Part shown: one piece after another, positions 50-1,250 of the stretch
Layout of the letters: each line of letters starts with the position of its first letter
How positions within the stretch are numbered: position 1 is the first letter of the stretch
Origin: a virus
Strand: one strand, 5' to 3'
UHGV virus genome: UHGV-0179848
Length of the DNA: 39,611 bases
Program-made: the position numbers and the translations under genes
Notes under the pieces: model-generated
What the model was told of the DNA's origin: nothing
Databases searched by the model: none
The model's input: the letters and a program-made list of their open reading frames with translations, nothing else

Positions 50-406
50 ATGCGTTTTATGCAACGTTCTAAAGACTCCTTAGCTAAATGGTTAAGCGCG
101 ATCCTCCCCGTGGTCATTGTTGGGCTGGTAGGGTTGTTTGCGGTGACGGTGATTCGCGATTATGGGCGCGAGACTGCCGCCGCCAGACAAACGCTGCTGG
201 AAAAAGGCAGTGTACTTATTCGCGCTCTTGAATCCGGCTCGCGCGTCGGCATGGGGATGCGCATGCATCATGCGCAGCAGCAGGCCTTACTGGAAGAAAT
301 GGCCGGGCAGCCTGGAGTACGTTGGTTTGCGGTCACGGATGAACAAGGAACAATCGTGATGCATAGCAACTCCGGCATGGTGGGTATAGCGCGGCGTTTT
401 TTTTGA
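50..406 (+). CDS. zraS: ZraS (HydH) sensor histidine kinase, N-terminal fragment truncated by prophage insertion
   Basis: Translation MRFMQRSKDSLAKWLSAILPVVIVGLVGLFAVTVIRDYGR... matches the ZraS N-terminus as I recall it, including the membrane anchor; ORF ends at a TGA at 404-406 where TTTGATAC end repeats begin; no kinase domain follows. Confidence 0.8.
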   Translation: MRFMQRSKDSLAKWLSAILPVVIVGLVGLFAVTVIRDYGRETAAARQTLLEKGSVLIRALESGSRVGMGMRMHHAQQQALLEEMAGQPGVRWFAVTDEQGTIVMHSNSGMVGIARRFF

Positions 407-466
407 TACCGATTTGCATTTCATTTGATACTGCTGAAAAACGCCGATACGCAACTTATTTGATAC
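402..466. repeat. Prophage right-end terminal repeats (candidate transposase end-binding sites, attR)
   Basis: TTTGATAC at 402-409, 424-431 and 459-466 plus CCGATACGC at 442-450, directly distal to mom, starting at a TG dinucleotide (404-405) as Mu ends do. Confidence 0.45.
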
Positions 467-512
467 TAAATCGGCGCTTTTCTTTTGAGTTTTAGAATGA
501 GTTTTTAAGCGC

Positions 513-1250
513 TCATTCACTCTCTTTCAAACCAGTTTTAACTGTTTGTGGTTTTGGGTAAGGCTGGACTTTGAATAGCTTTGTGTTGAGGCGTTTTCTG
601 GCCCTCTTGTTCAGAAACCGGATGTAACGAAACTGTCGGAACTTATGCACACTGGCTCTGTCGATATTAGCCCTCAGATGTTCACCTCGTTGTCCGCCTC
701 GTTTAATGGCATTCCTGCAAATCTCGTGATACCACTCGCCATCAAGTTCATAGAATATTGTTTCATGGCTGCCTACATAATCAAAATTGCTTGCCTGATA
801 CACGACACCAAGACAGCCACAACGCTCATCTGCAAACGACTGAACCCACTGTACCTGCGGATAAAGCTGCCTGATTAGCTTGAGCGCGTAACTGATTGCC
901 CTTGATTCGGAATTTCTCGGCATACAGTCATGCATCCATAGCCGGTTCAGCTCCATATATTCTCGGTTCTGCGTACCCGTTACGACGCGTGCACCACTGT
1001 TTGGGTTAAGGGCGTAACCCCATTGCATTACGCCAACAAGTTCCCGTTCTGAAAATATGCCCAGATGAAGGTAGGAGTTATTTACGAAACGGTGGCTGTA
1101 ATGTTTATTGACGATAACCAGTCTGGCCAGCCAGCAACTTATTGTCTCAACCCGCAACTCACGGGAACCATAACCAACGATATTGTCGTTATAGCGAATA
1201 AGTTCAGGCGTGCTGATGATACGGGATGTGACTTGCTTTCTGTTCCCCAC
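513..1250 (-). CDS. mom: Mom-like DNA modification protein (anti-restriction adenine modification)
   Basis: 245-aa ORF at the extreme right end, transcribed toward the terminus, 5' end overlapping the com ORF exactly as com-mom in Mu; family assigned by position and size, not by sequence recall. Confidence 0.75.

Follow-up and report, generated by a model that had tools for sequence, protein, structure and literature searches.

The zraS fragment and the right-hand junction

The window analysed here, the whole 39,611-nucleotide stretch of the UHGV virus genome UHGV-0179848, begins with host DNA and continues into a Mu-like transposable prophage. Its first 384 nucleotides comprise the promoter region and codons 1-112 of zraS, a sequence found with 100% identity in thousands of E. 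coli genomes. The 5' fragment of the gene itself (positions 50 to 384, plus strand) consists of codons 1-111 and two bases of codon 112 and shows 100% identity to annotated zraS. Its start at position 50 coincides with the annotated zraS start of the intact gene in strain E2865 (position 1550 of the reference locus), where the local gene order is hupA-yjaH-zraP(-)-zraS(+)-zraR(+), with zraS and zraR overlapping and zraP and zraS divergent. A promoter-like element of the sigma-54 -24/-12 type, TGGCAT-N5-CTGCT, with its GG and GC 10 nt apart, can be read at positions 3 to 18 (plus strand) and is presumably the ZraR-dependent sigma-54 promoter of zraSR located in the zraP-zraSR intergenic region. 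This element stays with the zraS 5' fragment and would need ZraR~P, the supply of which is predicted to be broken.

When window positions 1-700 were compared by megablast with 5,426 complete E. coli genomes, 5,420 gave a match, and among the matches listed every one spans positions 1-384, the best of them at 100% identity and annotated as 'zraS: two-component system sensor histidine kinase'. The zraS-phage junction is spanned in none of the 5,426 genomes and the rest of the query was left uncovered by any genome, so that this junction is absent from the complete-genome collection. Intact zraS continues past the breakpoint as ...ggcatggtggg/aaaacagc, while the window reads ...ggcatggtggg/TATAGCGCGG. 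In codons, the native ...ggc atg gtg gga aaa cag ctt... is replaced by ...ggc atg gtg ggT ATA GCG CGG CGT TTT TTT TGA. The two sequences diverge from position 385, which places the junction at 384/385. The initial annotation had correctly located the junction within zraS, but its estimate of about 395-405 lies 11-21 nt downstream of the true position.

The open reading frame that crosses the junction (positions 50 to 406, plus strand) encodes 118 aa, made up of ZraS residues 1-112 and the phage-encoded residues IARRFF. It starts with ATG and stops at a TGA (404-406) that overlaps the first TTTGATAC repeat (402-409) of the phage end. Positions 385-406 are phage DNA and supply the last six codons and the stop of this fusion, while Gly112 is preserved through a synonymous change from GGA to GGT. 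This frame had been described as a zraS reading frame of about 117 codons ending at a TGA where the end repeats begin, a description which fits the ORF and its stop but not the last six codons, which belong to the phage. A zraS continuing in frame past position 406 was looked for in the window and none does so. The exact 118-aa fusion protein is found on only two contigs in the public collection.

Intact ZraS is a protein of 458 aa with a Cache-like periplasmic domain at residues 43-145 or more, a HisKA domain at 238-300 and a HATPase_c domain at 346-450, and the structure of its cytoplasmic part (residues 217-458) has been solved as PDB 9jfj. In a Pfam comparison no kinase domain was recognised in the fusion ORF, and sCache_3_2 matched only weakly, at residues 43-112; the sCache_3_2 match of intact ZraS (residues 43-145) itself falls just under the Pfam cut-off. 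What remains in the 118-aa product is TM1 and roughly one half of the periplasmic sensor domain; TM2, HisKA and HATPase are missing. A contiguous TM1 - periplasmic sensor - TM2 - HisKA - HATPase_c polypeptide is thus not encoded by the window ORF, which covers residues 1-112 only. Both the periplasmic and the kinase domains had previously been considered absent from this side of the insertion; this holds for the kinase, whereas the N-terminal half of the periplasmic domain is still recognisable at residues 43-112.

Gene content of the prophage

The element that follows is an Sp18-type Mu-like transposable prophage, identified on the basis of its ends and gene content. It is inverted relative to the window (positions 385 to 39611, minus strand), with its right (mom/com) end at position 385. 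Nearest to this end lies the DNA modification gene mom (513 to 1250, minus strand), the product of which matches PHROG 1384 (Mom-like, E=8.6e-84) and the Pfam Mom family and is identical to a protein annotated as such in RefSeq. It is followed by com (1204 to 1404, minus strand), coding for the zinc-ribbon regulator of mom (Pfam Zn_ribbon_Com), the corresponding CDS in a relative being annotated in RefSeq as a Com family regulator. The interval between com and the MuB-like gene encodes a Gin-type invertase, tail-fibre, baseplate (Mu Gp45-48), tail, head and lysis proteins, Mor, GemA and Gam. The MuB-like AAA+ transposition ATPase (310 aa; 35454 to 36386, minus strand; Pfam Phage-MuB_C and AAA_22) adjoins a MuA-family DDE transposase of 696 aa (36470 to 38560, minus strand), for which the Pfam matches are Mu-transpos_C (E=2e-17; 63 bits against a cut-off of 21.7) and HTH_Tnp_Mu_1 (27.2 against 23.3). 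Next to the transposase gene is a Ner-like early regulator (38562 to 38810, minus strand), matching PHROG 769 (transcriptional repressor, E=3e-26) and Pfam HTH_35. A c-type repressor gene (38977 to 39561, plus strand; PHROG 3037, transcriptional repressor, E=3e-56) reads outward, in the direction of the left end and hence of the zraS 3' fragment and zraR. The organisation is that of a Mu-type phage, with the repressor and ner at the left, com and mom at the right, Gam, GemA and Mor, a contractile tail and an invertase, and the total length of 39,448 bp lies within the expected range of approximately 36-40 kb.

Several further ORFs are of accessory character or vary among relatives. Two short ORFs (106 and 76 aa) occur in a row on the plus strand between com and the DUF826 gene (positions 1519-2097), and their only family match is a PHROG of unassigned function. 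Their counterpart is a frameshifted pseudogene in three close relatives and an intact gene of 465 nt (WP_115801860.1) in three others. An ORF of 140 aa (29736-30158, plus strand) is located between GemA and Mor in the orientation opposite to that of the neighbouring early/middle genes. It has no Pfam or PHROG match, is present in nine of ten close relatives and missing in one, and is a possible moron or accessory gene. Adjoining the Gin-type invertase gene (5003-5563, minus strand) is a gene for a 693-aa protein (2831-4912, minus strand; PHROG 143) with SASA (sialate O-acetylesterase-like) and DUF6645 domains, the size of which varies in the family, with 2082 nt here and 2040 nt in one of the relatives carrying the intact 465-nt gene.

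The left-hand junction and the target-site duplication

Comparison with the prophage of E. coli STEC2018-607 indicates that the window ends 221 bp before the phage left end. The latter was taken from the source contig (ena:ERZ1304503, NODE_465; 64,802 bp), in which position 1 of the window corresponds to record position 24,847. This contig was reached via the fusion protein, and its far end via a variant of a 93-aa phage protein (window 34680-34961) that is private to this lineage. The exact repressor and the exact transposase are common to hundreds of contigs, and look-ups with them gave other insertion sites only (bcsA, eutG, a T6SS locus, rtcB and others).

The left junction reads ...GGTTACA/TGGGAAAACAG, and zraS picks up exactly at this point. 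From phage to host, the same junction is also given as ...GGTTACA/TGGGAAAACAGCTTTATTCC, ...CACCTGGTTACA/TGGGAAAACAGC and ...GGTATCAAATGATTCACCTGGTTACA/TGGGAAAACAGCTTTATTCCCCGCAGG. The TGGG at positions 381 to 384 recurs as a second copy past the phage left end (window-equivalent 39833-39836). Intact zraS has a single TGGG at the insertion position, which is duplicated around the prophage with no host bases lost. The prophage therefore extends from window position 385 to window-equivalent 39,832. A target duplication of 5 bp had been expected at the far end, but the left junction on the same contig gives one of 4 bp. Beyond the left end the contig carries 124 bp of zraS and then ends. In the sequence read around this end (window-equivalent 39557-39956), the left junction by chance creates an in-frame ATG (acA/TG GGA AAA) just before Gly112 of ZraS.

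The proposal that a prophage lies inside zraS and leaves a truncated sensor-kinase ORF is borne out, both junctions having been read and the zraS match ending at 384. The annotation of the locus is corrected with respect to the exact junctions, the 39,448-bp extent of the prophage and the 118-aa 'protein', which is a fusion artefact.

Insertion into zraS and its predicted effect on ZraPSR

The best explanation of the locus, with a probability of roughly 0.93, is that an Sp18-type Mu-like phage integrated by DDE transposition at codon 111/112 of zraS and that the lysogen is expected to be without a functional sensor kinase. The insertion is a simple one: zraS stops at 384 and resumes exactly on the far side of the phage left end, TGGG is duplicated, and host DNA has not been lost. 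The zraS 5' fragment reads into the phage right end and terminates after six foreign codons, and TM2, the HisKA phospho-acceptor and the ATPase domain lie 39.4 kb downstream, past the prophage. zraS and zraR would form one operon under the ZraR-dependent sigma-54 promoter upstream of zraS, and since zraSR would be expressed from that promoter, the lysogen should have no functional kinase. As 39.4 kb of phage DNA now lie between zraR and the zraS promoter, the gene order predicts a defect in the whole ZraSR system and not in ZraS alone. Promoter-driven expression of zraR would be little or none, and the zinc-responsive induction of zraP should be lost.

The initial annotation considered the lysogen to be probably ZraS-null, a view which the split zraS supports, although its scope was too narrow in that zraR is also cut from its promoter. 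The lysogen is very probably Zra-deficient, and at the level of the locus the strain is predicted to be without the ZraPSR envelope-stress/zinc response. A second, intact zraS allele may be present in the same short-read sample. The event itself is an ordinary insertional inactivation by a known and widespread transposable prophage family, and zraS represents one more Sp18-type insertion site.

A less favourable prospect for this prediction, and an unlikely one, is that the lysogen, although it does carry the insertion, is not Zra-null, with read-through from the repressor gene giving ZraR together with a ZraS lacking TM1 (Met plus residues 112-458), which would be an altered and possibly signal-blind kinase/phosphatase. 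Read-through into the zraS 3' fragment and zraR is conceivable given that the repressor gene faces the left end, that no terminator-like hairpin was detected over the 271 bp from its stop to that end, and that the ATG GGA AAA at the junction is in the zraS frame, with the nearest upstream in-frame stop 57 nt away and the whole cytoplasmic kinase part (217-458) encoded downstream. The search for terminators was, however, a crude consensus search, and the terminator and promoter scans around both ends yielded nothing above chance level. Direct reading reveals no recognisable Shine-Dalgarno sequence before the new ATG, and the missing TM1 would make a normal membrane topology unlikely. Furthermore, the repressor promoters of Mu are weak in lysogens.

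Still less probable, to the point of being very unlikely, is that the join between zraS and the phage represents an assembly chimera or a transient copy formed by lytic-cycle transposition in place of a stable prophage. Mu-like phages make many transient insertions during lytic growth, and the source contig, which has a SPAdes-style name and approximately 17x coverage, was assembled from short reads and comes from the ENA metagenome-assembly collection. However, a single 64.8-kb contig contains both junctions, which agree with each other to the base and show a 4-bp duplication that is typical of the family, and a chimera would not reproduce such a precise target duplication. The host flank upstream on the contig comprises 24.8 kb in the normal E. 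coli order (thiG...hupA-yjaH-zraP), and the same right junction was independently assembled in a second sample (ERZ1304511).

Prophage termini and presumed transposase sites

The right-end attachment region (attR; positions 385 to 470, plus strand) has the terminus 5'-TATAGCGCGGCG and contains three TTTGATAC(C/T) repeats at 402-409, 424-431 and 459-466, corresponding to positions 18, 40 and 75 from the end. Three plus-strand copies of TTTGATAC occur within 65 bp and one more in the remaining 39 kb, against a chance expectation of 0.98 copies for the whole window. At the left end the TTTGATAC(C/T) repeats are situated at positions 18, 112 and 164, and the repeats at both ends point inward. These multiple inverted repeats, clustered far above chance, are the presumed transposase-binding sites.

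The right terminus starts with TATAGCGCGGCG at all 14 independent insertion sites, and the bases preceding TATAGCG at the 13 other sites are unrelated (ctcg, ggca, cgcc, cata, aaca, tagt, caag, cggc, tatc, aatt, ggtc, caac, atcg, atca and similar), which indicates that the element begins at T385. The left terminus is the canonical 5'-TGTAACC, while the right terminus is 5'-TATAGCG (i.e. ...CGCTATA-3') in 14 of 14 copies, so that TG...CA is not found at both ends. The present copy has a T at position 13 of the right end (window position 397; TATAGCGCGGCGT...), unlike the 13 other copies examined, which all carry an A; this base falls in the spacer that separates the terminus from the first TTTGATACC site.

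Members of the Mu family normally have 5'-TG...CA-3' ends and 5-bp duplications. A phage end at the TG of positions 381-382, with the junction at 380/381, a 5-bp duplication and a merely coincidental sharing of tggg, would conform to that norm (PMC8705779) and the window does read ...cat ggTGGGTATAGCG, but this placement has next to no probability and is ruled out by the 14 independent right-end flanks with their unrelated preceding bases and by the left flank, which starts with tggg followed by native zraS where a 5-bp duplication would need catgg, and TTTGATACC occupies position 18 at both ends only when the right terminus is placed at 385.

Four-base-pair duplications in the Sp18-type family

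With the right end at T385, duplications of 4 bp are found in all seven family prophages for which both flanks were read, and the fifth base never matches. The duplicated sequences are TGGG in zraS (the present window), CTCG in bcsA, CATA in creC, TATC in the T6SS locus, CAAC in an epimerase gene of strain 97-3250, ATCG in agaF of strain Wll001 and ATCA in a DUF4224 gene of STEC2017-197. As a control, phage Mu was read in the same manner in E. coli W and B-766 and showed a 5-bp duplication (GCGGC) and TG...CA ends; a Mu-type 5-bp duplication is not seen in the Sp18-type prophages. Insertion at many sites with a short target duplication is evident from at least 14 right-end flanks and nine left-end flanks, all of them distinct.

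Two variants of a 5-bp stagger were considered, one in which the fifth base is overwritten and one in which a flap-derived T is kept, and mechanistic reasoning speaks against both. Since every copy has the same T:A pair, the pair must be carried on the transferred strand, which points to a 4-bp stagger and not to a 5-bp stagger with a corrupted base, and TTTGATACC falls at position 18 from both termini only in the present register.

In a 2021 survey, TG-CA ends were reported for all the Mu- and B3-like phages and prophages described, with duplications of 5 bp in Mu and 6 bp in B3 (PMC8705779). The odds are about even that the Sp18-type phages, despite a MuA-family transposase, transpose with a 4-bp stagger and a non-canonical right terminus (...TATA-3' and not ...CA-3'), which would constitute an undescribed variant of Mu-type chemistry. 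In the searchable literature no account was found of how long the duplication is, or how the ends read, in Sp18-type phages, which is not proof of novelty. Prophage-delimiting tools that expect TG...CA ends and a 5-bp duplication will misplace the right end of this widespread STEC family. The Sp18-type ends also offer a naturally occurring variant for work on how the target stagger is determined in MuA-type transpososomes.

Relatives and comparison with known transposable phages

Of the 5,426 complete E. coli genomes, 233 (~4%) carry the phage right end (positions 385-1300), at many loci. The closest relative is the bcsA-splitting prophage of E. coli STEC2018-607, with 99.9% identity at both ends, while among phage records the best matches are LC727881 and LC727895, two Stx phage records with 93% identity over 22 kb within a 'region of the inserted Bacteriophage Mu-like phage'. 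In gene order and sequence the present prophage is the same as Sp18 of E. coli O157:H7 Sakai and its STEC relatives (Phi804-3, the CC119 Mu-like phages and STEC2018-607). The present copy differs from these relatives in its location in zraS, a site occupied in none of the 5,426 complete genomes, in the T at right-end position 13 and in a few private protein variants. Members of the Sp18-like family are described as intact, non-circularising, transposing Mu-like phages that break genes such as sorM (PMC2669165, PMC7430833, PMC10132054).

Like the present prophage, phage Mu is temperate and transposable and causes insertion mutations through quasi-random insertion. The two share the layout of c, ner, A and B at the left and of mom/com and the invertase at the right, as well as the arrangement of three transposase sites per end, with L1 apart from L2-L3 and R1-R3 clustered. 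In contrast, the transposase shares no more than 22-31% identity with MuA, and the two phages show hardly any similarity at the DNA level. The core of the end repeats is TTTGATAC in the present prophage and of the CGAAAA type in Mu, the duplication is 4 bp here and 5 bp in Mu, and the right terminus is 5'-TA here and 5'-TG in Mu. Precedents for departures of this kind are the TA-TA ends of transposable prophages of Leptospira and the 6-bp duplications of B3 and the Leptospira prophages (PMC8705779). The Leptospira 'TA-TA' prophages and B3 have B3/Tn552-family transposases and 6-bp duplications, whereas a MuA-family transposase and 4-bp duplications are found here. In addition, only one end is non-canonical in the present prophage (left TG, right TA), unlike the TA-TA ends in Leptospira.

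Copies of the family elsewhere include one in creC, another sensor-kinase gene (strain 2013C-3252, NZ_CP027442.1), and others inside Stx1a- and Stx2c-converting prophages (LC727881.1, LC727895.1), and these illustrate the free insertion of the family, other mobile elements included.
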